Shown one piece after another: positions 1-15,100 of a DNA stretch of 64,000 nt. The stretch comes from a bacterium. GTDB lineage: Bacteria; Bacillota; Sulfobacillia; UBA995. The notes under the pieces are model-generated. The model made no database searches. It was not told where the DNA came from and saw nothing but the letters and a program-made list of their open reading frames with translations. How positions within the stretch are numbered: the first letter of the stretch is position 1; the number at the start of each line of letters is the position of its first letter. Both the position numbers and the translations under genes were made by a program. Location: positions 301,831-365,830 of the forward strand of contig JAVHLP010000001.1 of assembly GCA_031082145.1 (NCBI GenBank). The letters are read 5' to 3'.

Positions 1-997
1 AGTGCAACTCGATCTCCCGCCGGTTGGTCCGGATGAACTGGTAGAGCCGTGAGCCCTCCTCGGTCAGGCGGTACTCCCTTCGATCGGAGACAACAAGCCC
101 CTGCGCTTCGAGCCGTTCAACCCACTGGCCGGGGGTAGGGAACCGCTTGAGCCGGTTCTGCAAGCTCTGCCATCCGGGGTCGCCCTGGAAGCTCTCCAGG
201 AGATCCTGCAGTTCACCCACGCTGCCCAGGTCATCGGCCAGGTCCATGGCCGTCTGCAACTGAACCTGGCGCTTGACCTGCTGGTCGACTGGACTGGTGT
301 CCCGCCGCTGCAGCAGCGAATCCGAATAGCTGCCATAGGGGGAGAAATCGGAACCCCCCCCGGGACCACCTTCGACCGGCCGCAAGCGCTCGACCTTGCG
401 GATCTCGTACCCCTGCGAAACCACTTCCCGTTCCACCGCCGCGCCCAGGTAGAAGAGCACCGGCAGGTGGGCCTCGTCCACCTTCAGCGCCAAATGTACG
501 TGGTTCAAGTGAGCCCGCCGTAGCGATTCCTTTCGACCGTAGGCAAGCGATCCCGAGAGCCGACCGCCGCCGGTACCCGTCTGCAGGTCGACGTAGTCGG
601 CCAGCCGGCGAGAACCCGGCGCCAGGTGCGCCCCCTCCACCCAGGCGAAATCTCGCCAGTAACGGTCAACCGCCTTGAGCAGCGAGCGGGCGACCCGGCG
701 GTGGTCGACTTGGGCTACCTGGTGGAAGACGTCCACGTGGATGACCTCTCCGGTGCGCTGCCGCCGGTAGAAGATCCGGCCCGCATCGCCGTCGACAAGG
801 ACCTGGACCTCGGAAGGCTCGGCAGGGGAAACGGCGTGGACTCGGCGGCTCACCACCATGGTATGGCCCAGCCGCACTCCGAGCCCCCGGTCGAGAATGG
901 CGGGCAAGGCACGGGTGGCCTGGCGAATGGCCTCCAGCTGGCGGCTGTTGAACTGGCCGCCACCGGCGAATCCGGGGATACCCGGCTCGGGCCTCAT
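1..997 (-). CDS. Hypothetical protein, partial (C-terminus runs off the window start). The C-terminal region carries a winged-helix (PadR/MarR-like) motif.
   Basis: Hand translation of the minus strand gives an uninterrupted frame from ATG at 997 to position 1: MRPEPGIPGFAGGGQFNSRQLEAIRQATRALPAILDRG...HLNHVHLALKVDEAHLPVLFYLGAAVEREVV...VERLEAQGLVVSDRREYRLTEEGSRLYQFIRTNRREIELH. The ATG overlaps the stop of the upstream ChlI-like gene (ATGA). It is absent from the ORF track, probably because it has no in-window stop. Confidence 0.5.
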   Translation of the reverse strand, partial: MRPEPGIPGFAGGGQFNSRQLEAIRQATRALPAILDRGLGVRLGHTMVVSRRVHAVSPAEPSEVQVLVDGDAGRIFYRRQRTGEVIHVDVFHQVAQVDHRRVARSLLKAVDRYWRDFAWVEGAHLAPGSRRLADYVDLQTGTGGGRLSGSLAYGRKESLRRAHLNHVHLALKVDEAHLPVLFYLGAAVEREVVSQGYEIRKVERLRPVEGGPGGGSDFSPYGSYSDSLLQRRDTSPVDQQVKRQVQLQTAMDLADDLGSVGELQDLLESFQGDPGWQSLQNRLKRFPTPGQWVERLEAQGLVVSDRREYRLTEEGSRLYQFIRTNRREIELH

Positions 998-2472
998 GAC
1001 TGGACTTCCGGCAACCTCACCAGTTCATCCGGAGGCAGTTCCACCATGGGCCTGGCCAAGGCTGGCGGCGCGAAAGGCGTTACCTGCATGGGATCGGCCA
1101 GGGCGCCGGGAGCGGTGAGATCTCTCGATCGAGACCCGCGGTCCACCATGCGGCGCGCCATCCCGGCCGAGCCCGAGTCGCCACCCTGCCACCCCGCGGT
1201 CCCGCCCACCTTGCCGCCACCGCCGCTTACAGCTCCAGGACCGTCCAGAGAGCGCTTCAGCTTGGCCAGGAGCCCCCCCCAGGAGCGGGCCGGCGTGGCG
1301 GGAGGTGCCGCCACGGCCATCTCGCCAGGGGTCTCCACCTGGCCGTCGGCCCCACCGTCACCGTCGGCCGCCCTGCGCGGCATTTCCCGGTCCGGCCGGT
1401 TGCCCCACTCCTCCAGGTGCTTCATGATCTCGGTGATGGTAGCCAGGTCGGCCCGGTGGTGCAGGGCAAGCGGCGCCACGGCCAGGACGTCGCGCAACGC
1501 TACCTCGTCCCGCCCTTCCAGTACGGCGTGGATGTGGGCCCCGAGCTGAAGTGCTTCCACCGACCGGAGGCTCTCCAGGCTGAAGTCAACGTACAAGCTG
1601 GCCACCAGACGGCGCAGCGGGAGGGGAAAGACGACGACGCCATACCTGGCCAGCACACGGTGCCAGATCTCGCTCTCATCGACGGGCAGGGATGCTTCCC
1701 GGCGGCCAGAACCCCGGCAGGCAAGGATCTCGGCCACAACTTCAACCCTGCCCGGTCGGGACATGCCGATGACGAAGTCGAAACGGTCGGATAGCTGCTT
1801 GCGAATATCCTCCAGGGGACCGGGGTCCTCGTCGGGGTTGGAGGCTGCCCACACCGAGACACTCAGCGGCAGCTCTACCCGTGGCAAGCCTGTCTCCTCG
1901 ATCTGGATGCGGCCAGGTTTGGTCCCCATCACGTCCAAGAGCACGTCGGCCAGTTCGGGCGCGGTGTCGGCCAGCCGGTTGATCTCATCCACGAAGATGA
2001 TGCCCCTGTGCGCCTGGGGTAGGGAACCCGGCAGCAGGGCCGCCTGGGGCCTGGTCGCTTCGGTCAGGCGCCCCAAGTCTACGCTTCCAACCACCGTGCC
2101 CACTTTTGCCGAGTGCGAGATCTCCAGGAAAGGCATGGGGATCCACTCCGCCTCCCACTCCCCGCCCGGCCCATGCTGGGGGCAGTGGGGGCGTTCCGGG
2201 TCGCAGTTGAACAGGCAGCTCTTGATGCGACGGACGCGTGGGAGAGCTTGCCGGGCTGCCCGCAGGATGGTGGTCTTGCCGGTACCCCGAAGCCCTTCGG
2301 CATGCAGGTGCAGGGGGGAGCCCGCCAGGGTGGAGAGGATGGACATCTCCACCGAGCGGAACAGCTGTGCGTTACCGTCGTGCCGTACCAAGCCGGGTGA
2401 GAGTCGCAAGGTAGCCTCCAGTGGCATTTGCCACGCCCTATTCTCCCCGTCGCTGAGTCGAGCGTATTCCAA
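994..2472 (-). CDS. ChlI/BchI-like AAA+ ATPase (Mg-chelatase subunit I family) with a ~150-aa Gly/Ala/Pro-rich C-terminal extension.
   Basis: Walker A GLRGTGKTTILRAARQALP. Walker B/sensor block AHRGIIFVDEINRL...VLLDVMGTKPGRIQIEETG...SNPDEDPGPLEDIRKQLSDRFDF, collinear with BchI/ChlI. LFNCDPERPHC insertion as in ChlI. Low-complexity C-terminus. Confidence 0.8.
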   Translation of the reverse strand: MEYARLSDGENRAWQMPLEATLRLSPGLVRHDGNAQLFRSVEMSILSTLAGSPLHLHAEGLRGTGKTTILRAARQALPRVRRIKSCLFNCDPERPHCPQHGPGGEWEAEWIPMPFLEISHSAKVGTVVGSVDLGRLTEATRPQAALLPGSLPQAHRGIIFVDEINRLADTAPELADVLLDVMGTKPGRIQIEETGLPRVELPLSVSVWAASNPDEDPGPLEDIRKQLSDRFDFVIGMSRPGRVEVVAEILACRGSGRREASLPVDESEIWHRVLARYGVVVFPLPLRRLVASLYVDFSLESLRSVEALQLGAHIHAVLEGRDEVALRDVLAVAPLALHHRADLATITEIMKHLEEWGNRPDREMPRRAADGDGGADGQVETPGEMAVAAPPATPARSWGGLLAKLKRSLDGPGAVSGGGGKVGGTAGWQGGDSGSAGMARRMVDRGSRSRDLTAPGALADPMQVTPFAPPALARPMVELPPDELVRLPEVQS

Positions 2473-2507
2473 CCGAGATCTGGCACGACGCCACCCGGCG
2501 TGGCAAG

Positions 2508-2780
2508 ATGTCCCGGGGGTGGTCAGTGGTGAAAGCGGCGGTGTTCCACCTGCTCGTGGACTGGGCCTTCGGCGCCCTGAACCTCCACCGCCTGGCTGTC
2601 GGGGTGGTCGCCTTAAACACCTCGGCCTTGCTTTTGTGGGAAAAGGTCGGTTTCCGCCGCGAGGGGGTGTGGCGGGACGGCTACTTCTGCAAACATGAGT
2701 TCAATGACTTCGTGATCATGAGCTTGCTAGAGGACGAGTTCAGAAGCGCCCGCGAGAACGCCGCCGGTCCTCCGGGCTAG
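2508..2780 (+). pseudogene. GNAT-family N-acetyltransferase remnant (C-terminal ~85 aa only; N-terminal half missing, motif A degraded).
   Basis: HLLVDWAFGALNLHRLAVGVVALNTSALLLWEKVGFRREGVWRDGYF...FVIMSLLEDEF matches the RimL/RimJ-type GNAT C-terminal beta5-alpha4-beta6-beta7 region. SRGWS sits where the GxGxG acetyl-CoA motif should be. There is an in-frame stop ~18 codons upstream and no N-terminal domain anywhere in the 330-nt gap. Confidence 0.5.
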
Positions 2781-2803
2781 CGGCTTCCAGCGCATCGGCC
2801 GGC

Positions 2804-3241
2804 TTACCGGTCGGCAACCGCCTGCAGTCCCACCTCCTCTCCCAGCGCCGCGAGGAAGGCCAGATCCACCGGCCGCGGCCCGGGCGCACCGGCCAGAACA
2901 TGGCGGGAAGTGCGGGGCGGGTAGGGCCGGCGGGCGAGGCCCCTGTCCACCACGCTGTCCTTGTCTACCGGGGTATCTTGCCGCCAGGGCCACACCTGGA
3001 TCCCCTGGCTCCGGTAGTCCACCAGGTAGGCGGGCACCAGAAGGCAGCCCAAGGCCTGGAGGGCCTGCACCCGGTGATGGCCGTCCAGGATGATCAGCGT
3101 CACCCGGTCGACCAGTACCGGCTCCCGCAAGCAGCCATCCCTCCGGATCTCGTCGGTCAGCGAGGCCAGCCGGTCCTCCTCCACCTCTTCGTGGGGCAGC
3201 AACGCCCCGGTCTCCATAAGGGCAAAGCTCAACTCACTCAC
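2804..3241 (-). CDS. ParB/Srx (sulfiredoxin)-fold domain protein, 145 aa.
   Basis: PVLVDRVTLIILDGHHRVQALQALGCLLVPAYLVD matches the ParB N-terminal / Srx core (DGHHR; compare GGCHR in Srx and GERRxRA in ParB). GTG start 3 nt after the trpB2 TAG, with a GGGAGG RBS 9 nt upstream inside the trpB2 3' end. Confidence 0.65.
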   Translation of the reverse strand: MSELSFALMETGALLPHEEVEEDRLASLTDEIRRDGCLREPVLVDRVTLIILDGHHRVQALQALGCLLVPAYLVDYRSQGIQVWPWRQDTPVDKDSVVDRGLARRPYPPRTSRHVLAGAPGPRPVDLAFLAALGEEVGLQAVADR

Positions 3242-3243
3242 GG

Positions 3244-4605
3244 CTACCGGCCTCCCGCCACCTGCGGCAGCTGGGCGAGCGCTCGCTCGATCTCCTCCCG
3301 CGGATGCTGGTAATCCTCCAGGAGCCCGTCCAAGTAAGCCTCGTAAGCGCCCATGTCGAAGTGGCCGTGACCGCTCAGCCCGAAGACAATGCAGGGTTCC
3401 GTCTTCTCCCGCTCAGCCTCCCGAGCCAGTTCCACCACGACTTGGATGGCGTGGGCGGATTCGGGAGCGGGGAGGATGCCCTCGGTACGGGCGAAGAGGC
3501 TGGCAGCGGCGAAGGCGTCGAGCTGCCCTACCGCCCGGGCGGAGATCAGGCCGTGATGCAGGAGAGCGCTGGCCAGCGGGGCAGCCCCATGGTAGCGCAG
3601 GCCTCCGGCGTGAATGCGGGGCGGGACGAAGCTGTGCCCCAAAGTGAACATGTGAGCAACGGGCGCAATCCCCGCCGCGTCACCGTAGTCGTAGGCGTAG
3701 ACTCCCCGGGTCAGGGTAGGGCAAGCGGCCGGCTCGGCGGCGATCACCTGAGGGCCGGTGCCGTCAAGACTCAGGAGGGGGAAAGCCAGGCCGGCGAAGT
3801 TGCTGCCGCCCCCGAAGCAGCCGACCACCGCGTCCGGCCGTTCGCCGGCCATCTCCAGTTGCCGTCGGGTCTCCAGACCGATGACCGTCTGGTGCAGCAG
3901 GACATGGTTCAGCACACTTCCCAGCGAGTAGCAGGCACGGGGGTCGCCCGCCGCGTCCTCCACCGCCTCGCTGATGGCGATGCCAAGACTGCCGGGGGAG
4001 TCGGGCTGGTCTTCCAGGATGGCCCGGCCGCAGGCGGTGCGAGAACTGGGACTTGGGGTCACGTCGGCCCCATGCACGCGCATGAAGGCTTTCCGGTAGG
4101 GTTTCTGCTCGTAGCTAATCCGCACCATGTAGACCGTGCATTCCAAGCCGAAGAAGGAGCAAGCCAGGGCCAGGGCGGACCCCCACTGGCCGGCGCCGGT
4201 CTCCGTGGTCAGCCGCCGGGTACCGTCGCGGTGATTGTAGTGGGCTTGGGCGACGGCGGTATTCGGTTTGTGGCTGCCGGCCGGGCTGACCCCCTCGTAC
4301 TTGTAGTAGATCCGGGCCCGGGTCGGCAGGGCCCGCTCCAGCCGCCGGGCCCGCACCAGCGGCGTGGGCCGCCACAACCGGTAGACATCCAGCACCTCGC
4401 CGGGGATGTCAACGAACCGCCGGGAGGTCATCTCCTGCTCGATGAGTGACGGCGGGAAGAGTGTCGCCAGGTCGTCCGGGCCCAGGGGCTCAAGTGTTCT
4501 CGGGTGCAGGGGGGGGTTGGGACGGAAAGGCAAATCCGCCGCCAGGTTGTACCAAGCCGTGGGGATCTCGTTCTCAGCCAGCAGGTACTTGATCGATCCG
4601 GTCAC
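3244..4605 (-). CDS. trpB2: Tryptophan synthase beta-like PLP enzyme, TrpB2 clade.
   Basis: [17 protein letters not shown]-terminal signature of TrpB2 and a ~450-aa PLP fold (GSHKPN lysine motif). The likely start is GTG at 4605, preceded by GAGGAGGAG at 6-nt spacing. The ORF-track start TTG at 4629 lies inside the terminator U-tract. Confidence 0.85.
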
Positions 4606-4927
4606 TCTCTGCTCCTCCTCTCGAAGCAAGAAACCCGTCCCCTATGGGGACGGGTCTTGTCCGCGGTGCCACCCCGCTTGAGAAACCGCCTCCGCCCGGC
4701 GGCGTTCTCGCTCTGGGGGTACGGGGCCCATCAGGCGGATGAAGGCCCTTATACCCTTTCCCGGTAACGGGGGAAGGCCGGCGTTGTCTACTCGGTCGGA
4801 GCCTTTGGATACGCGGCTCCCGGGTCCATTCGGGCGCGCCTCCCGGCGCCGGGCTCACACCGACCCCGGCTCGCTAGGCCGGCAGGGCTGCGCCTACTAG
4901 TCCCGTTCATGGCCTATGGTATTTGGT
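4606..4927 (-). promoter_or_regulatory. Candidate T-box riboswitch leader, tRNA-Trp specific (UGG specifier), with a terminator/antiterminator directly upstream of trpB2.
   Basis: Minus-strand leader contains GGGGUGGCACCGCGG (T-box consensus AGGGUGGNACCGCGG; the UGGC bulge pairs with tRNA-Trp GCCA) at 4674..4661. It is followed immediately by hairpin CCCGUCCCC-AUAG-GGGGACGGG plus UUUCUU (4654..4628). A GAAUGGA specifier-like loop with the Trp codon UGG lies at 4831..4825. Leader length ~320 nt. Confidence 0.6.
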
Positions 4928-4934
4928 TGGGTAC

Positions 4935-4953
4935 ACTTTAGCACGCCCAAAAA
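4935..4953 (-). promoter_or_regulatory. Sigma-A-type promoter for the T-box/trpB2 transcript.
   Basis: Minus strand TTGACA (4953..4948), 17-nt spacer, TAAAGT (4940..4935). Confidence 0.45.
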
Positions 4954-5038
4954 CCCATGTCAAGCGGCGGCCTGGAACAACCGCAGTCCGAAACGGGTGC
5001 CAGTGAGCCCCGCAGCCAGAGTGGCCGGGACGATACGC

Positions 5039-6358
5039 TCAGATCACCCGGCCATGCCGGGAGCAGTAGTCGAGGATGATACCGGCGCCGAGGCGGCACC
5101 CGACAACCAGGCTGTCTTCATCAATATCAAAGCCCGGCGTGTGCAACATGGCCGCTATCCCCACAGCGCGGTTGGCCACTCCCAGCCAGAATAGAACCCC
5201 CGGCAGTTGCCGCTGGAAGACCGAGAAATCCTCCGACCCCACCGGCAGCGGCGCCCGGAAGGAGATGAGATTGGCGGGACCCACGGCCGCCGCGGCCGCC
5301 GGCGCGACCTCCGCCGTCAGCACCGGATCGTTCACCGTGGCCGGCACCGCTTCTTGCCAGTCGAGCTGGTAGCCCAGCCCCGTCCCTGCCGTGACCTGGT
5401 CCAGGACAGCTCTGACCCTTGCCGGCAAGGCGGCCCGCTCCTCCGGGTGGGCCGCCCGGGCAATCCCCACCAGGTCGGCCCCACCCGCCTCAACCCCGGC
5501 GGCCTGGGGGGAGAAACCAACCTCAACCGCCTTTAGCAGTTGCGGCTCACCCCGGATGACGGCGGCGAGCAGATCGTCGAAGGCCTCGACGCTCCCCGGC
5601 AGCTGGACGTTGCTCAAGCCCCGGACGGCCGTGGCGCACCGTTCCCGGACCGCCTGGCGATCAGCCGGAGTGGTTCGGCCCAGGAGATTCCGGAGAGCGA
5701 CCCGCACGTCGTCGAGAGGGGGGAGGTTGACGCCAGGACCCAGCCCGACTTGACCGACCGGCAACGGGAAGGCGTGAAGCGCGAAGATGGCCTCCGGGCG
5801 GGGGTTGTCCAAGACCCCGGCGCCGATCATCGCCCGGGCCCCCAGGGCAGGCTCCTCAGCCGGCTGGAAGATGAAGACCACCGTACCCGGCAACTGGCGG
5901 CGAACCCCGGCCAGCACTTCGGCGATTCCCAGCCCGATAGCCGTGTGGGCGTCGTGGCCGCAGCAGTGCTTGACCCCGGGAACCCGGGAGCGGTAAGGAG
6001 CCGTGAGGCCGTCACTGAGCGGCACGGCATCCATGTCCGCCCGCCAGGCCACGACCGGTCCCGGCCCGCCTCCCTGCAGCACGCCAACCACTCCGTGCCC
6101 GCCAACACCACACCGGACCTCGTCCAAGCCCAGCCGGGTGAGACGCTCGGCCACCACCCCGGCAGTCCGTTCTTCCTCAAGCGAGAGCTCGGGATGGGCG
6201 TGAAAGTCCCGGCGCAGGGACACCAGCCGTTGCTTCAGACCGGGACCCCTGCTCTCAAGTGAGCTCGGGTCAACCAGCAGTCTCGACTCCCTCCCATAGA
6301 ACCGGTGGTGGAGGCTACCGGACGATCTTGCCCCCCGCCATGACCCGAACCCCGTCAA
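5039..6358 (-). CDS. M20D-family amidohydrolase (N-acyl-amino-acid / hippurate hydrolase-like). The true start is probably downstream of 6315.
   Basis: LRRDFHAHPELSLEE...T signature, GHDAH metal ligands, ~390-aa core. The ORF-track N-terminus overlaps the upstream M29 gene, and a GGGAGGGAG RBS sits near 6295. Confidence 0.8.
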   Translation of the reverse strand: MTGFGSWRGARSSGSLHHRFYGRESRLLVDPSSLESRGPGLKQRLVSLRRDFHAHPELSLEEERTAGVVAERLTRLGLDEVRCGVGGHGVVGVLQGGGPGPVVAWRADMDAVPLSDGLTAPYRSRVPGVKHCCGHDAHTAIGLGIAEVLAGVRRQLPGTVVFIFQPAEEPALGARAMIGAGVLDNPRPEAIFALHAFPLPVGQVGLGPGVNLPPLDDVRVALRNLLGRTTPADRQAVRERCATAVRGLSNVQLPGSVEAFDDLLAAVIRGEPQLLKAVEVGFSPQAAGVEAGGADLVGIARAAHPEERAALPARVRAVLDQVTAGTGLGYQLDWQEAVPATVNDPVLTAEVAPAAAAAVGPANLISFRAPLPVGSEDFSVFQRQLPGVLFWLGVANRAVGIAAMLHTPGFDIDEDSLVVGCRLGAGIILDYCSRHGRVI

Positions 6359-7358
6359 GGTACAGATCCGGCTCGGGGATGACGAAGTCCTGGTGGTAGT
6401 CGGCGGTCACGACTCCCCCCATGTGCGAGCTGTCACCCAGTGCCAGGTGCACGGTGCCGCCGATCTTCTCCGCCTCCACCGTTACGTCCAGCCGCCTGGC
6501 GTTGGGATTGGTGCCCACCCCCAACTCCGCCAGGTTGCGCCGGGGGGCCAGGGCAGCTTCGGGCTGGCCGGTCAAGCCAAGCACCTCGCGTAGGACGTCC
6601 CCCACCCGGCCGCCGCCGGTCACCTGGTGGGCCTCACCCCCGGCCAAGGTGATGGTCATGTCCTCCTCGAGGCGTGGATGCCACCCGGCCCGGACCACCA
6701 GCCGTCCCTCACCGGTTCCCTCTACAGGAGCGGTGAAGGCCTCTCCCGCCGGCAGGTTGCCCCAGCGTCCGGGAGTCCGGTATATCCCGTCGTCCGGTCT
6801 GCCCTCGCGCCCCTCCAGGCTGAACCTGATATCAGTGCCGGCCGGACAGGTAACTCGGGCCGACCGGGCCGCCGTCAACCAGGAAGCGATGCGGGCGGTC
6901 TCCTCGGCCAGCTTCTCATAGTCGCAAGACATGGCCCCGCCGGGGTAGAACATCTCCGGCAGGAAAGCGGGCATGCTGGCGAGCCGCGCGCCCGCCCGGC
7001 AGGCCTCCTGGCGGGCATCGGTGTGGCTCAGGGAGTAGCTGGTTATGGCCACCACGACATCGTGCTCCCGCATGGCCCCGGGAGCAGGCGGGGGAGGCTC
7101 GGCTCCCGAACGCCCGGTGGACTCGAAGGTGAGGAAACTGACGGCCCGGTGGCCCTCGGCTGCCACCTCCGCCACCTGACGGGCCAGGAGTGCCCGCCGC
7201 AGGTTCTGCTCGAGCACCTCCGGGTCAAGGCCAGTCCAATGCTCGGGCCGGGGCCGATCGGTGATCACCAGCAGCTTGTCGTCGGCCCCCAGGCCGAGGT
7301 TCACCCGGAGCATGTTCCAGACCCCGTCGCGGATCTGATCCCGGTCAACCCAGGTCAC
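6315..7358 (-). CDS. M29-family (aminopeptidase T / AmpS-like) metallopeptidase.
   Basis: ELGVGTNPNA...GTVHLALGDS...HQDF blocks typical of thermophilic aminopeptidase T-fold proteins. Confidence 0.7.
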   Translation of the reverse strand: MTWVDRDQIRDGVWNMLRVNLGLGADDKLLVITDRPRPEHWTGLDPEVLEQNLRRALLARQVAEVAAEGHRAVSFLTFESTGRSGAEPPPPAPGAMREHDVVVAITSYSLSHTDARQEACRAGARLASMPAFLPEMFYPGGAMSCDYEKLAEETARIASWLTAARSARVTCPAGTDIRFSLEGREGRPDDGIYRTPGRWGNLPAGEAFTAPVEGTGEGRLVVRAGWHPRLEEDMTITLAGGEAHQVTGGGRVGDVLREVLGLTGQPEAALAPRRNLAELGVGTNPNARRLDVTVEAEKIGGTVHLALGDSSHMGGVVTADYHQDFVIPEPDLYLDGVRVMAGGKIVR

Positions 7359-7502
7359 GTCATCACCCCTTCGCCATGGTTCGCAGCCGTCCTCCGGCCG
7401 CCGGGATCAGTTTCCGGCAGGAGGGATCTTTCTCCTTCCCAAGGCAAAAAGGGAAACGCGCCGCCGGGGAGAAAGCCTGGAAGGACAACAGGGGGTGCCC
7501 AT

Positions 7503-8696
7503 GTGTCCGTCCGTCCCAAGCTGCTCGCCGCCTTTCTGCTTCTCCTCATCCTGTCGGCCCCGGCGGGGTCGGTGGCCGCCTACGAGCCGTCGCCGGATCC
7601 CGTGCCGGCCCGGGCCAGGGTACTGACGGTCCTGGAAGATGAGGAGGCCGAGGAAGGTCCCTGGGGTTTCGCCCTGCGGCGACAGACGGTAACCCTGCGC
7701 ATCCTGACCGGCCCCTACCGTGGACAGAGCTTCACCGTTGATAACTACATCCCCGGACAGCCGGCCTACGACATCATCCTCAGCGCCGGCGACACCGTGC
7801 TGGTCGCCATCGAGGAGGCCGAAGGCGAGCCGGTGGCCATCTTCATCGAGGACTTCGTGCGCGACCAATACCTGTACGTCCTGGCCGCGCTGTTCGCCCT
7901 GAGCCTGGTGGCGGCCGGCGGTAGAAAGGGGCTTCGTGCCCTGCTGGTGCTGGTCCTGACCATCCTGGGAGTCTTCTTTGTCCTGCTCCCCCGCCTGCTG
8001 GCCGGCTCCGCGCCGGTTCCCACCACCATATGCGTCTGCGCCCTGGTCACCCTGGTCACCATGCTGATGGTGGCCGGTCCCGGCCGCAAGGCTCTGGCTG
8101 CCACCCTGGGGGCCACCGGCGGGGTTGCCGTGGCCGGGATGCTGGCCCTTTACAGCGGCGGCCTGGCCAGGCTAATGGGGCTCAACGCCCAGGAAGCCCA
8201 GCTCCTCTATTACGTGGAAGACCTGACCCTGGACTTCCGGGGACTCCTGTTCTCCGGTATGATCCTGGGAGCCCTGGGCGCCATCATGGACGTGTCAATG
8301 TCCATCGCGTCGGCCACCGAGGAGGTACGCCGGGCAGCTCCCCGGCTGAGCCCGCTGGCTCTGTTTCAGGCCGGCATGAACGTGGGCCGCGACGTCATGG
8401 GAACCATGGCCAACACCCTGATCCTGGCCTACACCGGTGGCGCCCTCCCCCTATTGCTGCTGCTCATGGCCTACAATGCCAGCCTCATCAAGGTCATCAA
8501 CCTGGACCTGATAGCCACCGAGGTGGTCCGGGCCTTGACCGGCAGCATCGGCGTCGTGCTCTCCGTTCCCATCACCGCCGCGCTGGCCAGCGCCGTATTC
8601 GCCCGCCCCGCCGGGCGGAGAACCGTTATCCGGGCGCGGGCGATCTCCCGCCCACCGGTCCAGAGAGATCTCCCTCCAGGGTCACCCCCGCAGTGA
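7503..8696 (+). CDS. YibE/F-family integral membrane protein.
   Basis: GTG start with GGGGG 7 nt upstream. Signal-like RPKLLAAFLLLLILSAPAGSVAA followed by multiple TM helices. The first 290 codons of the ORF-track frame are antisense to the M29 gene and are rejected. Confidence 0.7.
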   Translation: MSVRPKLLAAFLLLLILSAPAGSVAAYEPSPDPVPARARVLTVLEDEEAEEGPWGFALRRQTVTLRILTGPYRGQSFTVDNYIPGQPAYDIILSAGDTVLVAIEEAEGEPVAIFIEDFVRDQYLYVLAALFALSLVAAGGRKGLRALLVLVLTILGVFFVLLPRLLAGSAPVPTTICVCALVTLVTMLMVAGPGRKALAATLGATGGVAVAGMLALYSGGLARLMGLNAQEAQLLYYVEDLTLDFRGLLFSGMILGALGAIMDVSMSIASATEEVRRAAPRLSPLALFQAGMNVGRDVMGTMANTLILAYTGGALPLLLLLMAYNASLIKVINLDLIATEVVRALTGSIGVVLSVPITAALASAVFARPAGRRTVIRARAISRPPVQRDLPPGSPPQ

Positions 8697-11600
8697 TTCC
8701 CGCCGCCAGGAAGTGGAGATAGGCCCCCTGCACCGGGCGCCCGAGGATGGTGGCCGCCGCCCGGGCGTACAAGCGGAGCTGTGGTGAATACCTCTCAACC
8801 AGGGTGGCGATGCTCGCGGGAGTCGCCCGGTCGGTCTTGAAATCCACCACCACCAGACCTCCCACCTCGTCGAAGAGACAGTCGATGACCCCTTGGACCA
8901 GGACTTGCTCTTCTCCCGCCTCGTCCGGGGGTACCTCCGGATACACTTCGGCGGCGGGCAGGGCCAGGGTGAACGCCACCTCCCGGCGGACGCGGGCCGG
9001 TTCCACCTTCAGCCGGCGGCCCAGGGGACTGGAGAAGAACCGTCCGATGGCCACCCGGTCCACCAGCCCGGCTTGGGTCGGGCTGAGCAGTTCGCGTTCC
9101 ACCATGCTCTCTACCTGAGCGGCGACGTCCGCCGGGTCAAGAGCGGTCTCGAGGCGCAGGTGTCTGAGCACAAGGTGGGTGGCGATGCCGGCCTCGACTC
9201 CGCTCCCCGCTCCCGCCGAGGGCCGCTCGCCACCGGCCACCCAGTCCCTCCCCTTCAGCTCCGTCACCGTAGCCTTGGCCGCCCTCCCGGCCAGTCGCGT
9301 CCACGGGTAGCGCCATTCCAGCGCCCTCTGGAACCGTTCCTCCAGTTCAGGCACGGGCGGGACGGACTCCGGCCGGGCCGCCTCCCGCCGGCCCGGCGGG
9401 TCGGGCAGCCGTTCCCAGCGGATCACCCGGAAACGGGACGGCTCGCCGGCCGGCAAGCGATCGGCGGCGGGAAGACCCCAGTCCAGCCCGGGGTGCCGGG
9501 CCAGCGCCATCCCCAGCCACTCCAGCGGGGTCTCGACTTCCGCCAGCAGGGCGTCCGGCAGCCTCCAGTCCCGGTGGCCGGCGACCGCCACCTGCCAACG
9601 GGTCACGGCCCGATCCAACCCTCGTGCCGAACCAACCAGGCACAGCCGCTCGCGGGCACGCGTCATCGCCACGTACAAGATCCGGAGCTCCTCGGCCAGG
9701 CTCTCGAGGCGCAAGCGGCCCGCCACTGCCCGCTGGGCCAGGCTCGGGTAGACGACATCGGCCGCCCGATCCACCACCGCCGGCCCCAGACCCAGCCTGC
9801 GGTGGAAGAGCAGATCGGGGTTGTCCCCGCCCAGGCGGAGCCTCCGGCCCAGGCCGGCGAGGAAGACCACCGGGAACTCCAGGCCCTTGCTGCGATGTAC
9901 ACTCATAACCCGGACCGCGTCCTCTCCCTCGCTCAGGGCCATAGCCGCCCCCAGATCTTCATCCGCCTCCTCCAACCCTTCAAGCAGCCGCAAGAAGCTG
10001 ACCAGACCCCGGGTGGCATAGCGGTCAAAGGCCCGGGCCCGGTCCTGGAGGGCCATGAGATTGGCCTGGCGCTGAGCTCCTGCCGGCATCGCCCCCACGT
10101 ACTCGGGGTAGCGCGTCTCCCGGTAGATGGTGCCGATGAGATCGGCCAGGGGGCCCCGCCGGGCCAGGGTGCGCCAGGCATCGAGGCGCTCCCGAAACCG
10201 CTCCAGGCGGGGATCGGTCGAGACGAGGGCGGCATCGGCGAAGCTCTGCGGGTCACCCAGGCGGAGCCGGGCCATGTCGGCCGGATCCAGTCCCACCAGC
10301 GGTGATCTGAGCACGCAGGCCAGGGGAATGTCCTGTCTCGGGTTGTCGATGAGGCGCAGTACAGACAGGACTACCTGTACCTCGATGGCCTGGAAGTACC
10401 CGGTGGCCAGTTCACCGCAAGCGGGCACCCCCGCCAGGCGCAGCGTCTCCACCACCTGGTTGGCGTGGCCCCGGGTGGCTCTGAGAAGCACGGCGAAGTC
10501 ACGGTATCGAAGCGGGCGAGGTGGATCGCCCACCAACTCCGGACCATCAACCATGGCCCGAATGCGGTGAGCAACCAACCGGGCCTCCCGCTCCATCGTC
10601 TCCAGGAAGTCCCCCCGGGGATCGCCTTCGTCCGCTCCCTCCCGCTCCAGCAGGTGAACCTCCACCCCGCCGCCGCCATCGGGCAAGTGGGCCACCAGCT
10701 CGGCGTCCTGGTCGTATGCCAGTTCGCCCACCCCCGGCGTCAGCAGCTGCCGGAACAGGTAGTTGACGGCGTGGATGATGGCCGGGCGGCTGCGGAAGTT
10801 GACGGCCAGGGGGATGCGCCGGCACCGGGGGCGCTCGGGGTAGGCGTGGTAGCGGGACAGGAAGAGTCCCGGCTCGGCCAGCCGGAAGCGGTAGATGCTC
10901 TGCTTGACGTCGCCTACCAGAAACAGGTTGGGCGAGGGGTCGTCGTCGCCCCGGGAGACAAGCCCCAGAATGGCATCTTGCAATGGGTTTATGTCCTGGT
11001 ACTCGTCAACCAGCACCTCGTGGAAAGCCAGGCGCAACTCGGTGGCCACCGGTGAGGACCCTTGCAGCAGGCGCAGGCAATAACGCTCCAGGTCGGCGAA
11101 GTCAAGTAGGGATCGGGCCGCCTTGGCAGCGGTGTAGACATCGTCAAAGGCGGCCACCAGGCCGGTCAGACAGGCCATACGGGGGGCCAGCGCCCTCAAC
11201 TCGTCCACCTGCTCGCCGGGCGACCGGGTGAAGTAGGCTTCCCGGAGTGCGTTCAGCGCGGCCTTGGCCTCATCCCGCACAGACCGGGCTTGCTCGCGGA
11301 CGGCCTCGTCCACGGCCCCCCGGTGGCCAGGCAACCTCGCGAAGGTCAACTCCTGGACGGCCGCGTACGCCGCTCCCCAGCCGTCCCCCAGGCTCCCGAG
11401 GATCCCGGCGGCGGCCGCTGCCTCTGTCTCCAGTACCGGGAGCCAGGCCGTCGGGCCCCCGGGTCGACGGGCCAGCCGGAGGGCCGCTTCCACAAGGCCG
11501 GCAACTCGACCCAGCCCCAACCGGACCCCTTCTTCCAGGGCTGGCCACCAGGGCAGGTCTTCGATCCGAGTCCCGGCAGGCACTTGAAAGGCCTCCCCCG

Positions 11601-12168
11601 CCGCCCGCAACCAGCCCCGGGGATCGGGTTGGCTCCCGGCGAAGGCATGGAGGTCGAGCACCGCCCGTTTCAGGCGCAGGTCCCCGCCGGGATGGCTATA
11701 GGCGTCCACCAGGTCCAGGAAATCGGTCCCGGCTTGCTCGTAGCAATCCTCGAAGAGCTCGTCCGCCGCCTCCAGGCGCAGCAAGAGAGCTTCTTCCTCC
11801 GCCGCCACCCGGAAGCCGGGATCAAGGTCCAGGAGGTAGAAGTACTTGCGAAGGAGCCGGAGACAGAAGGAGTGCAGGGTCGAGATCCAGGCCCGGTCGA
11901 CCAGGGCCAGTTGCCGCCGGAGTTCGGGACGGGTGGCTGCCGCCAGGTGCAGGGCTTCCCGTACCCGGGCGCGGACCTCCCGGGCGGCCGCCTCGGTGAA
12001 GGTCACGACCAGCAGACGATCGATGTCGGCCGGCCGCTCAGCTACGGTCAGGTGCCGGATCACCCGCTGGACCAGGACGGCCGTCTTGCCGGCACCCGCC
12101 CCCGCTGAGACCAGGAGGCTCCGGCCGGTGGTCTCGATGGCTGCCCGCTGCTCGGCGGTCCAGTTCAC
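8626..12168 (-). CDS. addA: ATP-dependent helicase/nuclease subunit A (AddA; UvrD-like helicase plus C-terminal nuclease).
   Basis: 1180 aa. N-terminal GAGAGKTAVLV Walker A with UvrD/PcrA-type motifs, and a C-terminal PD-(D/E)xK region. Start overlaps the addB stop. Confidence 0.9.
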   Translation of the reverse strand: MNWTAEQRAAIETTGRSLLVSAGAGAGKTAVLVQRVIRHLTVAERPADIDRLLVVTFTEAAAREVRARVREALHLAAATRPELRRQLALVDRAWISTLHSFCLRLLRKYFYLLDLDPGFRVAAEEEALLLRLEAADELFEDCYEQAGTDFLDLVDAYSHPGGDLRLKRAVLDLHAFAGSQPDPRGWLRAAGEAFQVPAGTRIEDLPWWPALEEGVRLGLGRVAGLVEAALRLARRPGGPTAWLPVLETEAAAAAGILGSLGDGWGAAYAAVQELTFARLPGHRGAVDEAVREQARSVRDEAKAALNALREAYFTRSPGEQVDELRALAPRMACLTGLVAAFDDVYTAAKAARSLLDFADLERYCLRLLQGSSPVATELRLAFHEVLVDEYQDINPLQDAILGLVSRGDDDPSPNLFLVGDVKQSIYRFRLAEPGLFLSRYHAYPERPRCRRIPLAVNFRSRPAIIHAVNYLFRQLLTPGVGELAYDQDAELVAHLPDGGGGVEVHLLEREGADEGDPRGDFLETMEREARLVAHRIRAMVDGPELVGDPPRPLRYRDFAVLLRATRGHANQVVETLRLAGVPACGELATGYFQAIEVQVVLSVLRLIDNPRQDIPLACVLRSPLVGLDPADMARLRLGDPQSFADAALVSTDPRLERFRERLDAWRTLARRGPLADLIGTIYRETRYPEYVGAMPAGAQRQANLMALQDRARAFDRYATRGLVSFLRLLEGLEEADEDLGAAMALSEGEDAVRVMSVHRSKGLEFPVVFLAGLGRRLRLGGDNPDLLFHRRLGLGPAVVDRAADVVYPSLAQRAVAGRLRLESLAEELRILYVAMTRARERLCLVGSARGLDRAVTRWQVAVAGHRDWRLPDALLAEVETPLEWLGMALARHPGLDWGLPAADRLPAGEPSRFRVIRWERLPDPPGRREAARPESVPPVPELEERFQRALEWRYPWTRLAGRAAKATVTELKGRDWVAGGERPSAGAGSGVEAGIATHLVLRHLRLETALDPADVAAQVESMVERELLSPTQAGLVDRVAIGRFFSSPLGRRLKVEPARVRREVAFTLALPAAEVYPEVPPDEAGEEQVLVQGVIDCLFDEVGGLVVVDFKTDRATPASIATLVERYSPQLRLYARAAATILGRPVQGAYLHFLAAGITAGVTLEGDLSGPVGGRSPAPG

Positions 12169-15100
12169 GCCCTCGCCTCCTCGGCCAGGTCTTGCCAGGT
12201 CAAGGCCGTCCCCGCCTCCCGGTAGACGTCACCCACCAGCGGGTCAAACCCACAGGCGGCCCGGAACTCGCAATAGCGGCATGCCCGTTCCTTTCCTCCC
12301 CGGTAGGGACGTATGGAGACGTCGCCGCCCGCCAGCCGGTTGCCGAGGCCGGCCAGGCGGGCGCGCACCGCCCGCAGGACCCCGACCAGATCCTTCGGGC
12401 CCACGGCACCCGATCCGGCCGCCGGGGCGCCATCCACTCGCAGCCTGGCCCGGACGAGGTGCCCGGCCGGAGAGTCACCCTCGCCCCGGTCAAGTAGGCG
12501 GATGACCTCCGGGTCGGCGACGGCCAGCCCGTCCAGGCGGAACCGGTCCAGACGCCTCCGGTCGGCCTCTTCGGGCGAGAGTGGTCCCCCGGCCCGAACC
12601 GGCTGGGCTAGCAGTGGCAGGTAGAAGGCGCCGGCCGCCCGGACCCGCTTTCGCCCGGGCCACTCATGCTCCAGGACCACCGCCAGGTAGCAGAGAAGCT
12701 GCAGGTCAAGGCCGGCGGCCACGGCCCCCGGATCAAGGCGGCGGCGGCTTGATTTGTAGTCGATGACCCGGAGATAGGTCACTCCTTCCCGTTCGGCGGC
12801 GTCCACCCGGTCGATGCGGCCGCGCAGTTCCAGGCTCCGGCCGCCCTCCAGTTCTTGACGGAGCGGCGGCAGGTCCTGGCCGGGGCCGAAGGCGACCTCC
12901 GCCGCCAGTGGCCGGAAGCCGCTGCGACGGGCGTGCCGCCCCAGCACCGCCACCGCCTGCCGGAAAGAACGGGCCAGGACACCGCCGAGAAAGCGGTAGC
13001 GGGACGAGCTCATCAGCACGGCCCTCCCCACGCCGGGTACTAGCTGCTCCAGGACTTGATCGGCCAGTCGCTCCCTGGCTCGCTCATGCTCGGCGCTCCA
13101 GTCCAGTCCCTGGTCATCCATCTCCTCCACCAGGAGCTTGAGGGCGTCGTGGAGCAGGGTCCCCACGTCCCGCGACTCAAGCCGGAAACGGAGACGTTCC
13201 TGCAAGCCGAGGCCATAGCTCAGGAAATGAGCGTAGGGGCAGGCGGCGAAGCGCTCGAGCCTTGATACGCTGGCCCGGAGGGGTTCGCCGTACAGCCGCA
13301 GGACCAGTTCGGGTGGGAGAGGAGCCACCCGGTTGGTGTGATCCAGCCCCGCCAGGGCCAAACGGAGCTTCTCGGGGCCTCCCGGGCGGCGCTTGAACCA
13401 CTCGAGAAAACACCGCCATACCGGAGCCATCGGGGCCCCCTCCCGGGCCCGGCCGAGTTCCCGGGACAGTTGGGCCAGGGCCGTCTCCTCGCTGGCCAGG
13501 TAATCCAGCGGATCCTCCTCCGCCGGCTCCAGCCCGGGGAATAGCTCACCCAGCCGGCGCACCAGGGTGGAGTGGAACACCGCCTTACCGTCCTCGGTCC
13601 CGCGGGGGTAGCTGACCCACAGCCGTTCCGAGGCCCGGGTAAAGGCGATATAGCCCAGGTAACCCTCCCCCAGCAGCCGTACCCGGCTGGTGGCGGCAAG
13701 CTCCAAGCCGTGGGCCAGGAGCAGTTCCCGTTCGCCATCGTCAAACAGCGCGTCCTCCTGGGGAGGGCGCGGGAAAAACCCCTCGGCGACCCCGAGGACG
13801 AAGGCCGCCCGGGCTTCCGGTAACCGGGAGCGATCCACCTGGCCCACCAACACCTGGTCCAGGGCGGGGGGGACAAGTCCCAGCCGCAAGGTAGACAACC
13901 CGGTCTCGACGACATCGGCCACAGCCCGGGCCTCCAGTTCTTCCTCCCCCAGGGCGGATCCCATCTCCTCCAGTAGATCGGTGACCTCCGCCCAGACCCG
14001 GTCATGTTCCTGGGCTTCTTCCGGGCGCCCGGTGGTCAGGGCTTCCTGCCGCCACTCCTCCAGGCGAAGGCCCGCGCCCAGGCGATCCAGAAACTCGCGC
14101 AGGGCCGCGGCCCACTCCCCGGCCGGGGCCGGTCTCCTCCCCATCCGCTGGGCCAGTTCCTCCAGGGGCGCCATCGCTCGCCGGCGAGCACCCTCCAGTT
14201 CTTGCGGCCAGGGTCTTGTCCAGGCGGCCCCCCGGATGCCATGGGCCAGGGCGTGGTTTTCCAGGCGGTCAGCCTCGTCGCGTTCCACCGGGGCCAGGTC
14301 CGTCTTCAGGTAGCGGAAGACCGCCTGCTGGGGCCAGCCGGAGACCAGCGCCTCAAGGGCGGAGCGAACCACCTCTACCAGCGGGTGATGGAGACCCGAG
14401 CGCCGCTCGTCCAGGAACCAGGGTACCTCGCAGCGGTCCAGGGCTCCCAGAAGGTCCCGGTAGGGTTCGACCTCTCGGAAGAGGACCACCATCTCGCGCC
14501 AGCGATACCCGTTGTCGCGCACCAGGCGGGTGATCTCCCGAGCGGCCATCTCTACCTCCACCCGAGGGTCGGTCGCTTCCACCAGGCAGATGTCCTTGGG
14601 ACGGCCCCCGCGACTGCCCGCGCGGCCGAAATGGGCTTCCAGAAAGGCCAACTCTGGAGCCCCGGCGAACCGCGGGGGCTTGCCGGCCAGCAACAAGGGG
14701 GGGTCAAGGGTGAGCCCGGTCGCCAGCGCCCGCGAGCGCAGCCGCCGGTACGTATCCCGAGTTGGGAAGAAGAGGTCGGTGGGGTCGGGATCCTGCTCCA
14801 GCTCGTCAGGATCCAGGCACAGGGTGATGTTCATCCTCCGGGCCGCCACGGCCATCGCTTCCAGTACCCGGTACTCCTGGGGGGTGAAGCCGGCGAAGCC
14901 GTCCACCCAGACCTCGGCGCCGGCGGCGACCGCCGCCTGGCCGAGCCGGCAGGCCGCCAGCCCAAGGGTGTCATCGGGATCCAGGAAGCGCCCGGCCAGA
15001 TAGTCGTCATAGGCTCTGACTAGCAGTTCGAGATCCTTGAGCTTGGCCAGCAGGCCCGGGGGACCCCCGGCTCCCTGCAGACGCCGGCCGGCAGCCTGGA

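Follow-up and report, generated by a model that had tools for sequence, protein, structure and literature searches.

Two overlapping genes at the edge of the window

At one end of the window, by which we mean the whole 64-kb stretch of DNA that was analysed, an AAA+ ATPase gene is followed on the same strand by a second gene, hereafter the partner, which leaves the window at base 1 (Table 1). The initial annotation had proposed that the two are coupled through a 4-nt ATGA overlap, and we found that this overlap is real, with the partner frame remaining open for 332 codons up to the window edge. The longest ORF for the ATPase begins at a TTG codon, but the true start is probably the ATG at 2427, which gives a protein of 477 aa; the same start is used in the NCBI model MDQ7793097.1 (477 aa, 100% identical to the ATPase encoded here). 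The next gene upstream of the ATPase, also on the same strand, is an ORF with a ParB/Srx domain. It had been described as ParB-like and two genes away, whereas it directly adjoins the ATPase and is of the serine-kinase-like SerK/SbnI type. Scans of positions 1-4800 for sigma-70 promoters and intrinsic terminators returned no sites, and Rfam returned no regulatory RNA in positions 1-9000.

Table 1. Positions of the gene pair, its domains and motifs, and the adjoining ORF (residue numbers of the ATPase refer to the 492-aa ORF).
Feature	Position	Strand	Evidence or remark
Partner gene, first 332 codons, leaving the window at base 1	1..997	-	open frame, no stop
Partner winged-helix domain, residues 284-326	20..148	-	internal in the full-length protein
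Partner acidic helical linker, residues 236-283	149..292	-	
Partner orphan alpha+beta N-terminal domain, residues 37-232	302..889	-	model, conservation
ATGA stop/start overlap, ATPase/partner	994..997	-	couples both genes
ChlI/BchI-clade AAA+ ATPase gene	994..2472	-	longest ORF 492 aa, TTG start at 2472
ATPase C-terminal short linear motif DP..(P)..APP..ARP[LIVM]..L.p.e, residues 461-492	997..1092	-	conservation
ATPase Gly/Ala/Pro-rich low-complexity tail, residues 355-460	1093..1410	-	length differs greatly between homologues
AAA+ lid (AAA_lid_2), including ESLR and sensor-2 R303	1441..1602	-	Pfam PF17863, 1e-7
Sensor-1 WAASNPDE (208-215) and Arg finger QLSDRFD (226-232)	1777..1851	-	invariant columns
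Walker B IIFVDEIN, residues 158-165	1978..2001	-	motif alignment
CX3CX6CX2H motif (C86/C90/C97/H100), between Walker A and B	2173..2217	-	family-specific
Walker A GLRGTGKTT, residues 60-68	2269..2295	-	G..G.GK[ST] in 119/120 homologues
SerK/SbnI-type serine-kinase-like ParB/Srx-domain ORF	2804..3241	-	NCBIfam SerK, 8.5e-16

The ATPase belongs to the chelatase clade and carries a family-specific cysteine motif

The ATPase had been called collinear with Mg-chelatase subunit I, and sequence searches agree: residues 60-341 align by phmmer to BchI (1G8P, E 2e-15) as well as to ChlI (8OSF/6L8D), and BchI and ChlI are its only sequence matches in the PDB. Among NCBIfam models it matches BchI-ChlI (1e-23) and TIGR02442 (2e-34), while its scores against TIGR02030 (83.7 bits) and PF01078 (17.9) lie under the respective cut-offs of 466.95 and 20.3. 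The MoxR-type model AAA_3 (PF07726) has no match in this ATPase and reaches 0.003 in one homologue only. With chelatase models scoring best, the protein is by sequence a member of the chelatase sub-clade and not of MoxR. Walker A and Walker B are present as originally reported, and all AAA+ catalytic motifs, which are common to BchI/ChlI, are invariant in an alignment of 22 homologues.

Between the two Walker motifs lies a CX3CX6CX2H motif that is invariant in the same alignment and present in 119/120 homologues. Only the first of its four positions, a cysteine, has a counterpart in BchI 1G8P, and the insertion as a whole is absent from BchI; we regard it as a putative Zn or other metal knuckle. 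Downstream of the catalytic core, the Gly/Ala/Pro-rich tail noted at the outset was also evident, with these three residues making up 42% of positions 355-492 compared with 24% in the core. The tail ends in a short linear motif, a conserved Pro/acidic peptide, in which P469 and A473 show no variation and at least 90% of the 22 homologues retain P461 and P475; 85 of 120 homologues carry the core of this motif within their final 60 aa, and the C-terminal peptide is a candidate for docking to the partner.

Orthologues of the partner continue into a vWA domain

The initial annotation was headed by the claim that the ATPase has no vWA partner. No D-x-S/T-x-S/T motif occurs in the ATPase or in the 332 in-window residues of the partner, just as had been stated. 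However, over its whole length the in-window part can be aligned with residues 1-331 of complete orthologues, and these are ~540-660 aa long, so that ~230-260 partner codons, encoding a linker and a vWA/MIDAS domain, are expected beyond base 1. We identified 32 partner homologues, and a VWA Pfam domain was found in every full-length one, with the MIDAS pattern DxSxS...T...D conserved; in L005, the closest full-length orthologue (72% identical), it reads DSSASM...GLTPL...SDG. Of 111 family representatives clustered at 50% identity, 110 carry the DxSxS motif. Since a vWA domain with a complete MIDAS follows in all full-length orthologues, the apparent lack of a vWA partner is an artefact of the window edge, and calls of missing partner domains at the edges of sequences need to be checked against orthologues. 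The C-terminus in the source organism itself lies off the window, and its vWA domain is deduced from these orthologues; searches of a metagenome collection, by exact 40-mer from the window start and by a protein-guided scan, returned no extending contig. Exact-sequence look-ups of the 492-aa and 477-aa ATPase likewise located no contig, and a GTDB scan yielded relatives with 72% identity at most.

It could still be that the gene is truncated or reaches a contig end in the source genome, and that this organism truly has no vWA domain. The protein database does contain the ATPase of this metagenome-assembled genome, yet it returned no partner closer than 67% identity, and neither protein was located on a contig. 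Against this stand the uninterrupted frame, the end-to-end alignment with orthologues and the near-universal MIDAS of the family, and we consider such a truncation very improbable.

The orthologue vWA domains, which make up the C-terminal ~240 aa, match TIGR02442 (1e-18 to 1e-26) and also BchD/ChlD, in the latter case with 38-62 bits against TIGR02031, under its cut-off of 499.55. TIGR02442, which describes a single-chain AAA+-linker-vWA protein, is the best NCBIfam match of both genes. The ATPase covers positions 31-324 of the 641 in this model and the partner C-terminus covers positions ~402-637; therefore, the pair together reconstitutes the model. The resemblance ends in several places: the pair consists of two genes joined by an ATGA overlap, its scores are far under the cut-off, and ~325 new residues, comprising the orphan domain, the helical linker and the winged helix, precede the vWA half.

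These additional residues bear on whether the partner is a canonical ChlD-like or CobT protein, one of the outcomes that the initial annotation had named as refuting its own reading. A vWA domain is indeed found in every full-length orthologue, which largely refutes that reading, but the AAA+-like N-terminal module of ChlD is absent (hhalign probability 0.2%), a result that also rules out the partner N-terminal domain as a degenerate AAA+ module. Judged by its sequence, the partner is thus not a canonical ChlD or CobT, and an orphan domain stands where ChlD has its AAA+ module.

An orphan His-rich domain and an internal winged helix

The N-terminal domain of the partner contains a set of near-invariant residues, namely H54, D71, G73, H87-x-D89-x-x-H92, H166-x-H168 and E189, and across the 111 representatives the His, Asp and Glu residues among them (H54, D71, H87, D89, H92, H166, H168 and E189) reach 98-100% conservation. 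Two further motifs, DxQTGTGGGR and DLSxYxSxSDSLL, were also recognised. The identity of these residues suggests that the domain may bind metal. Its predicted structure is a confident one (pLDDT 87.6, pTM 0.87). A search of 1.84 billion proteins gave 168 representatives of the family, and the domain was found in no other architecture. It has no sequence match in the PDB and no Pfam match at default thresholds, and a search of 18 members at E<=10 yielded one match to EpmC (0.059) and nothing else. Foldseek comparison with the PDB gave no fold match, the best E value being 0.1 for HPr; the resemblances to HPr and to chorismate synthase were treated as non-significant. The HxD...HxH arrangement recalls metallopeptidases of the LAS/M15/M23 type, a reading that was dropped because no such fold is found among the listed structural matches.

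The partner had been described as ending in a PadR/MarR-like winged helix. A winged-helix fold is present, but it is internal, and in full-length orthologues the vWA domain follows it. Compared with MarR/PadR regulators, it sits within a 570-aa protein, lacks their dimerisation helix arrangement, scores under threshold in Pfam (17.4 bits for HTH_45, cut-off 25.5) and has a neutral, poorly conserved recognition helix.

The pair might alternatively form an ATP-dependent DNA-associated or transcription-regulatory module, in which the winged helix would bind DNA and the ATPase ring would remodel a nucleoprotein complex, possibly in connection with the nearby recJ. A regulatory module had been one of the suggestions made from the sequence alone, and of it the winged helix itself stands, while a DNA-binding role receives weak support. 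Net charge averages -0.1 over the recognition helix, whose mean column identity is 38%, and +2.4 over the whole winged helix, and the strongest conservation in the partner is found not here but in the His-rich domain and the MIDAS. Winged helices also often serve as protein-protein modules in AAA+ systems. We think a DNA-associated or regulatory module quite unlikely.

In related genomes the pair is embedded in a conserved block of core genes

To compare gene neighbourhoods, we examined 79 related loci and found the ATPase directly upstream of the partner in 66, with the same -4 overlap in 32 of these 66, and with median gaps of 84-95 nt between the pair and its flanking genes. The conserved order is secD-secF-[pair]-lapA_dom-recJ-apt-relA-dtd-MBL-hisS, which is kept in Symbiobacterium, Tepidanaerobacter, Thermovorax, Fervidicola, Sporomusa, Pelosinus, Lucifera, Anaerospora and Caldinitratiruptor. 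This core-gene block, with the pair inside it, spans Symbiobacteriia, Thermosediminibacteria and Negativicutes and occurs in dozens of species. In at least one case, P0147 of Thermacetogenium phaeum, an ATPase paralogue occurs without a partner.

The fixed position among core genes was difficult to reconcile with a conflict-system role, which had also been raised for this pair. Several conflict systems do have an AAA+-vWA pair at their core (PMC7159879), and an anti-phage or other conflict module resembling the ternary MoxR-vWA systems could in principle be encoded here. However, neither the ATPase nor two full-length partners matched PADLOC-DB at E<=0.01, and there is no third gene encoding a VMAP, iSTAND or effector protein. 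Several Bacillota classes share one fixed arrangement of core genes around the pair, unlike what is seen in genomic islands, and the ATPase is of the chelatase sub-clade and not of MoxR. We therefore give this possibility very little weight. We take the module to serve a housekeeping role and to be passed on vertically, and not to be a mobile or defence element.

The neighbourhood also bears on the possibility that the pair is an ordinary class I chelatase motor, that is, a diverged ChlI/ChlD (I-D) complex of a cobalto- or other metallo-chelatase, with the gene for its large, tetrapyrrole-binding CobN/ChlH subunit at a distant site in the genome. This would account for the best family matches of both halves, which are all chelatase models (TIGR02442 'putative cobaltochelatase', BchI, BchD), and for BchI and ChlI being the sole PDB matches of the ATPase. 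Those matches are nevertheless distant: scores of 119 and 92 bits compare with a cut-off of 779, and a score of 84 bits with one of 467. Furthermore, no CobN/ChlH, tetrapyrrole or B12 gene was found in the 64-kb window, in agreement with the initial annotation as far as CobN/ChlH is concerned, or within +-10 kb of the 79 related loci, where the surroundings are always the secDF-recJ-relA block. The partner, in turn, has no ChlD AAA+ module and carries the conserved His-rich domain and winged helix instead. We consider an ordinary chelatase motor unlikely, if somewhat less so than a DNA-associated module.

Members go by the database names 'magnesium chelatase', 'putative chelatase' or 'hypothetical' throughout, although the hosts are non-phototrophic anaerobes, and identifying the client would correct a widespread mis-annotation. 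Our literature search found nothing specific to this architecture.

Comparison with known AAA+-vWA machines

To our knowledge, AAA+ motors of the class I chelatase type have been explained only in systems that include the giant H/CobN subunits. Relative to Mg-chelatase, the pair has an ATPase collinear with BchI/ChlI, and the partner orthologues share the D-type vWA domain with a complete MIDAS found in BchD/ChlD; a flexible Pro/Gly/Ala-rich linker between motor and vWA is common to both systems. The pair differs in that this linker resides on the ATPase polypeptide, which also has the Cys3His insertion, in that the partner has an orphan His-rich domain and a winged helix in place of an AAA+-like module, in scores that are 5- to 8-fold under the equivalog cut-offs, and in a neighbourhood that has no H/CobN gene and lies at the secDF-recJ-relA locus of non-phototrophic Bacillota. 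TIGR02442 proteins, for their part, usually occur with cobN or B12 genes, whereas the neighbours here are secDF, recJ, apt, relA and dtd.

Another group of two-gene systems, the MoxR-type pairs CbbQ-CbbO, NorQ-NorD, CoxD-CoxE and RavA-ViaA, likewise combines an AAA+ ATPase with a MIDAS-containing vWA protein. They differ from the present pair in that no client gene (Rubisco, NOR or CODH) adjoins it, and in that the N-terminal module of its partner is unique. Midasin (Rea1), which acts in eukaryotic ribosome biogenesis, unites six AAA modules, a D/E-rich linker and a MIDAS domain in one giant polypeptide. What it has in common with the pair is the general logic, with a ring-forming ATPase, a lengthy flexible linker of low complexity, and a MIDAS through which an acidic client residue is gripped (PMC7159879). 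MoxR-type pairs act on a client by remodelling or metallating it (PMC7159879; PMC3471820 for CoxD) and provide the best analogy for how the ATPase and its partner probably work.

A model for the ATPase-partner module

Combining these results, we propose, with a probability of roughly 60%, that the two genes form a Bacillota module related to the ChlI-ChlD motor of class I chelatases, which would act as a remodelling machine whose working domain binds metal. The first gene product is, by its motifs, a catalytically complete ATPase of the ChlI/BchI clade that presumably assembles into a hexameric ring. The second, translationally coupled to it, would be a D-like adaptor in which the inactive AAA+ module of ChlD has been swapped for a ~200-aa His5/Asp2/Glu domain, the helical linker and the winged helix. 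In Mg-chelatase, the integrin-I/MIDAS domain of ChlD binds the client ChlH (PMC6604950), and AAA+-vWA pairs of the MoxR/chelatase clade work as chaperone and co-chaperone (PMC7159879). By analogy with Mg-chelatase I-D-H and MoxR-vWA pairs, the MIDAS of the partner may clamp an acidic residue, located either on a client or on the tail peptide of the ATPase, and ATP hydrolysis by the ring would be passed on through the adaptor. The His/Asp domain would be the working end, serving as a metal-binding or metal-delivery site or as a metal-dependent catalytic site, and a large H/CobN subunit would play no part in the proposed mechanism.

In the proposed module, the I-D motor would have been reorganised about a compact His-rich domain that is highly conserved and has no structural assignment, and several Bacillota classes would have retained it among core genes. 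Once identified, the client would help to establish a new domain family not yet modelled in Pfam and could point to a new step of ATP-dependent metal handling or remodelling in the physiology of Firmicutes. More tentatively, and with odds clearly against it, the pair could be a self-contained, H-independent AAA+/MIDAS machine whose orphan domain is a new metal-centre fold, working as a new ATP-driven metal insertase or metallochaperone or as an ATP-gated metalloenzyme, in a process central to the cells of much of the Bacillota. If so, the Cys3His knuckle and the tail peptide would represent new regulatory elements of the chelatase clade.

A ChlI-type ATPase overlapping a partner with a predicted vWA domain

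Reading the frames bears out the arrangement proposed in the initial annotation, in which positions 1-2472 hold two ATGA-coupled minus-strand ORFs, the second running off the window edge. GC content is 66-70%, and the closest relatives among the matches listed in a GTDB-wide scan are Symbiobacterium-like Bacillota MAGs. The NCBI model of the first ORF (MDQ7793097.1, 'MAG: magnesium chelatase [bacterium]') is 100% identical and 477 aa long, and its start, the ATG at 2427, agrees with homologue starts.

Features of the ATPase and its partner
Feature	Position	Strand	Description
ATPase ORF	994..2472	(-)	492 aa from TTG start
ATGA stop/start overlap, ATPase and partner	994-997	(-)	
N-domain	partner residues 37-232		alpha+beta with antiparallel sheet (AlphaFold2)
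Acidic helical linker	partner residues 236-283		AlphaFold2
Winged helix	partner residues 284-326		AlphaFold2
H54	partner		99% conserved, 111 representatives
D71	partner		99% conserved, 111 representatives
G73	partner		100% conserved, 111 representatives
H87	partner		100% conserved, 111 representatives
D89	partner		98% conserved, 111 representatives
H92	partner		99% conserved, 111 representatives
H166	partner		98% conserved, 111 representatives
H168	partner		98% conserved, 111 representatives
E189	partner		100% conserved, 111 representatives

The only PDB sequence matches of the ATPase were BchI (1G8P, E 2e-15) and ChlI (8OSF, 6L8D), aligned over residues 60-341. Its NCBIfam matches were TIGR02442 'putative cobaltochelatase' (1.7e-34, model positions 31-324 of 641), BchI-ChlI (1.3e-23) and BchD-ChlD (1.6e-18), with the curated cut-offs far above every score; in Pfam, AAA_lid_2 was over threshold and Mg_chelatase slightly under. 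Among 22 aligned homologues there is no variation in GLRGTGKT (Walker A), FVDEINRL (Walker B), WAASNPDE (sensor-1), QLSDRFD (Arg finger) or ESLR of the lid, and the ATPase therefore looks catalytically competent by its motifs. Equally invariant there is a CX3CX6CX2H motif (C86, C90, C97, H100) lying between the Walker A and B motifs and present in 119/120 top homologues; BchI has a counterpart only for its first Cys (1G8P alignment). The tail is low-complexity and of variable length over residues 355-460 (G+A+P = 42% over 355-492), and its final ~30 residues carry the conserved motif DP...APP..ARP[LIVM]..L.p.e, in which P469 and A473 are invariant in the same alignment and whose core occurs in 85/120 homologues.

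The partner frame stays open over 332 codons up to window base 1. A search with this 332-aa fragment returned 32 proteins, among which the full-length homologues (538-580 aa) all have precomputed VWA/VWA_2 Pfam domains, confirmed by hmmscan at residues 387-540 of one of them (P0001). Aligned with its orthologues, the fragment corresponds to their first ~330 residues, after which every one continues with a basic helix, a linker and a vWA domain whose MIDAS is complete (D-[AS]-S-A-S-M-x-G ... G-L-T-P-L ... T-D-G). The closest full-length orthologue among the matches listed (L005:6805-8577, 590 aa, 72% identity over residues 1-331) reads DSSASM, GLTPL and SDG at these sites, and DxSxS lies C-terminal of residue 300 in 110/111 full-length cluster representatives. 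Because the C-terminus of the window copy lies beyond window base 1, we infer its vWA domain from orthology. The apparent lack of a vWA partner for the ChlI-like ATPase was thus an edge artefact; that the partner gene is genuinely truncated in this genome is very improbable.

The C-terminal part of the partner (~325-570) falls on TIGR02442 positions ~402-637 (E 1e-18 to 1e-26) and, in BchD/ChlD, on positions ~342-547. With the ATPase on the preceding part of TIGR02442, both genes jointly cover one single-chain ChlI-ChlD-like model, and the pair resembles an I-D-type protein split in two. We regard the architecture of the pair as nearly certain.

A conserved histidine-rich domain in the partner

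Partner residues 1-~325 have no counterpart in ChlD. AlphaFold2 modelled the entire fragment confidently (pLDDT 86.6), and likewise the N-domain alone (pLDDT 87.6, pTM 0.87). The N-domain had no Pfam match up to E<=10 beyond one to EpmC at 0.059, and Foldseek against the PDB gave nothing at E<=1e-3; an AAA+ module was rejected (hhalign probability 0.2%). A search of 1.84 billion proteins with its profile gave only 168 cluster representatives, and since nearly all carriers are 540-660 aa long with the domain at residues ~20-220, it appears to be confined to the partner architecture.

The polar residues of this domain are extremely conserved, as are the motifs DxQTGTGGGR and AHxNHVH. Judged by residue identity, five His, two Asp and one Glu placed on adjacent strands and helices would make up a metal-site signature, and we propose metal handling by the domain tentatively, at somewhat under even odds.

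The winged helix could instead point to a DNA-associated or regulatory machine working through it. The recognition helix averages ~0 in net charge and only 38% in column identity, so sequence-specific DNA binding is not the obvious reading, and we consider such a machine unlikely.

Genomic context and distribution

The scan gave at least 125 confirmed species-level matches, of which the best 80 loci were kept; ORFs were clustered over 79 of these, a few of them representing one contig twice. In 66/79 loci the ATPase immediately precedes the partner, with a -4 overlap in 32/66, and median gaps from the pair to flanking genes are 84-95 nt. With flanking clusters named by Pfam, the conserved order is (tgt-yajC...)-secD-secF-[ATPase-partner]-lapA_dom-recJ-apt-relA-dtd-MBL-hisS. 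This secDF-recJ-relA locus is a classical Firmicute housekeeping block, which implies vertical inheritance of the pair and speaks against an island. PADLOC returned no match for the ATPase or for two full-length partners at E<=0.01, and a defence system is a highly improbable reading.

Listed matches include Symbiobacterium, Tepidanaerobacter, Thermovorax, Fervidicola and Thermosediminibacteraceae, the Negativicutes Sporomusa, Pelosinus, Anaerospora and Lucifera, and a few MAGs labelled as other phyla. In the window lineage (the window and related loci L005 and L007), trpB2 and a SerK-like gene stand upstream of the pair in place of secDF; downstream, L001 and L007 have lapA_dom-recJ-apt-relA.

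As the initial annotation had noted, no CobN/ChlH-like large subunit is nearby: the 64-kb window holds no chelatase H subunit, with AddAB, peptidases, YibE/F and a prismane-family protein present instead. Nor do the related loci show a conserved neighbour of CobN/ChlH size near the pair, the large ORFs there being RecJ, RecJ-helicase fusions, ValS and AddA. A class I chelatase of the ordinary type, its CobN lying elsewhere in the genome, is a rival reading; the D-like partner without an AAA+ module, its extra domains and the invariant non-tetrapyrrole gene context argue against it, and we think it improbable, if somewhat less so than the DNA-associated machine.

Public names for the family are only 'magnesium chelatase', 'putative chelatase', 'VWA domain-containing protein' and 'hypothetical', and literature searches found no description of the pair's architecture. 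It is a chelatase-clade AAA+/vWA pair, of a known kind, with one domain currently without family or fold assignment; what remains after the edge artefact is a well-conserved, uncharacterised housekeeping module of moderate interest.

A proposed model for the pair

ChlD bridges the ATP-driven ChlI ring to its client ChlH through a Mg2+-dependent integrin-I/MIDAS domain (PMC6604950). More generally, MoxR/chelatase-clade AAA+ proteins work with vWA co-chaperones, capturing a client peptide and releasing the client remodelled, and several such pairs, e.g. CoxD-CoxE, serve metal-centre insertion (PMC7159879, PMC3471820). The pair described here combines a full ChlI-type AAA+ active site and a D-type, MIDAS-bearing vWA; its genes are tightly coupled in translation, and both the tail peptide and the His/Asp domain are conserved. 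We favour, at a probability of roughly 0.6-0.7, an AAA+/MIDAS remodelling pair that works without a neighbouring H subunit. The ATPase ring would bind the partner, possibly via its C-terminal Pro/acidic tail peptide; the partner MIDAS would grip an acidic residue, either a client's or one in that tail peptide; and ATP hydrolysis would drive a conformational change in which the His/Asp N-domain does the work, be it gated catalysis or the handing over or insertion of metal.

Neighbouring genes and related loci

The TrpB2-type tryptophan synthase beta gene (3244..4629(-); NCBIfam PRK12391, 4.6e-209) is followed after 2 nt by that of a 145-aa 'ParB-like' protein (region 2804-4629(-)), which matches the N-terminal ParB/Srx domain of the ADP-dependent serine kinase SerK (8.5e-16) and SbnI (1.3e-9) and is far shorter than SerK (145 aa vs 244 model positions). 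TrpB2 enzymes are reported to use O-phosphoserine. As this is the product of SerK (PMC5120207), the two may form a kinase-plus-synthase couple. The two closest relatives among the matches listed (L005:3527-5268, L007:6679-8464; identity to the window 74%/72% for TrpB2, 68%/58% for the SerK-like protein) also have both genes immediately before the ATPase, and there trpB2, the SerK-like gene, the ATPase and the partner follow one another almost without gaps on one strand.

A 90-aa ORF (2508-2780(+)), located in the 330 nt that separate the SerK-like gene from the ATPase, matches GNAT acetyltransferases only in their C-terminal third (Acetyltransf_4 positions 97-153 of 155, E 2e-4, under cut-off), and tblastn found no counterpart in the related loci, L005 and L007 included; it looks like a gene remnant. 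Between the M20 peptidase and YibE/F membrane protein genes, a 347-aa ORF (6315-7358(-)) has no Pfam match at E<=1e-5.

A few pair-bearing contigs (L041, L052, L056, L057, L081, L011) labelled as Acetobacteraceae, Pseudomonadota, Chloroflexota, 'Mycobacterium leprae', Betaproteobacteria or Ignavibacteriales MAGs show the Firmicute-type synteny recJ-apt-relA-dtd, and are probably mis-binned or mis-labelled rather than cases of the pair outside Bacillota. Three Negativicutes or related loci (L026:5216-8773, L056:11831-15475, L072:11895-15482) encode, just downstream of the pair, a RecJ fusion of ~1190 aa with the unusual RecJ-HIRAN-helicase architecture DHH-DHHA1-RecJ_OB-HIRAN-DEAD/Helicase_C.

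Thermacetogenium phaeum (CP003732) has two ATPase paralogues, AFV12087.1 and AFV11937.1, in one 90%-identity cluster. One copy (L085/L086:8001-9263) stands alone among SLAC1, Rce1-like, NUDIX and feoAB genes, with ~480 nt of uncalled sequence 3' and no vWA partner, and retains the C-terminal tail motif.

Two large overlapping genes at 8626-15515(-) form an AddA/AddB-type helicase-nuclease pair, whose 1116-aa protein has ADDB_N and PD-(D/E)XK domains and whose 1180-aa protein reads as UvrD/AddA-like from sequence alone; these genes are ordinary and unrelated to the ATPase-partner pair.
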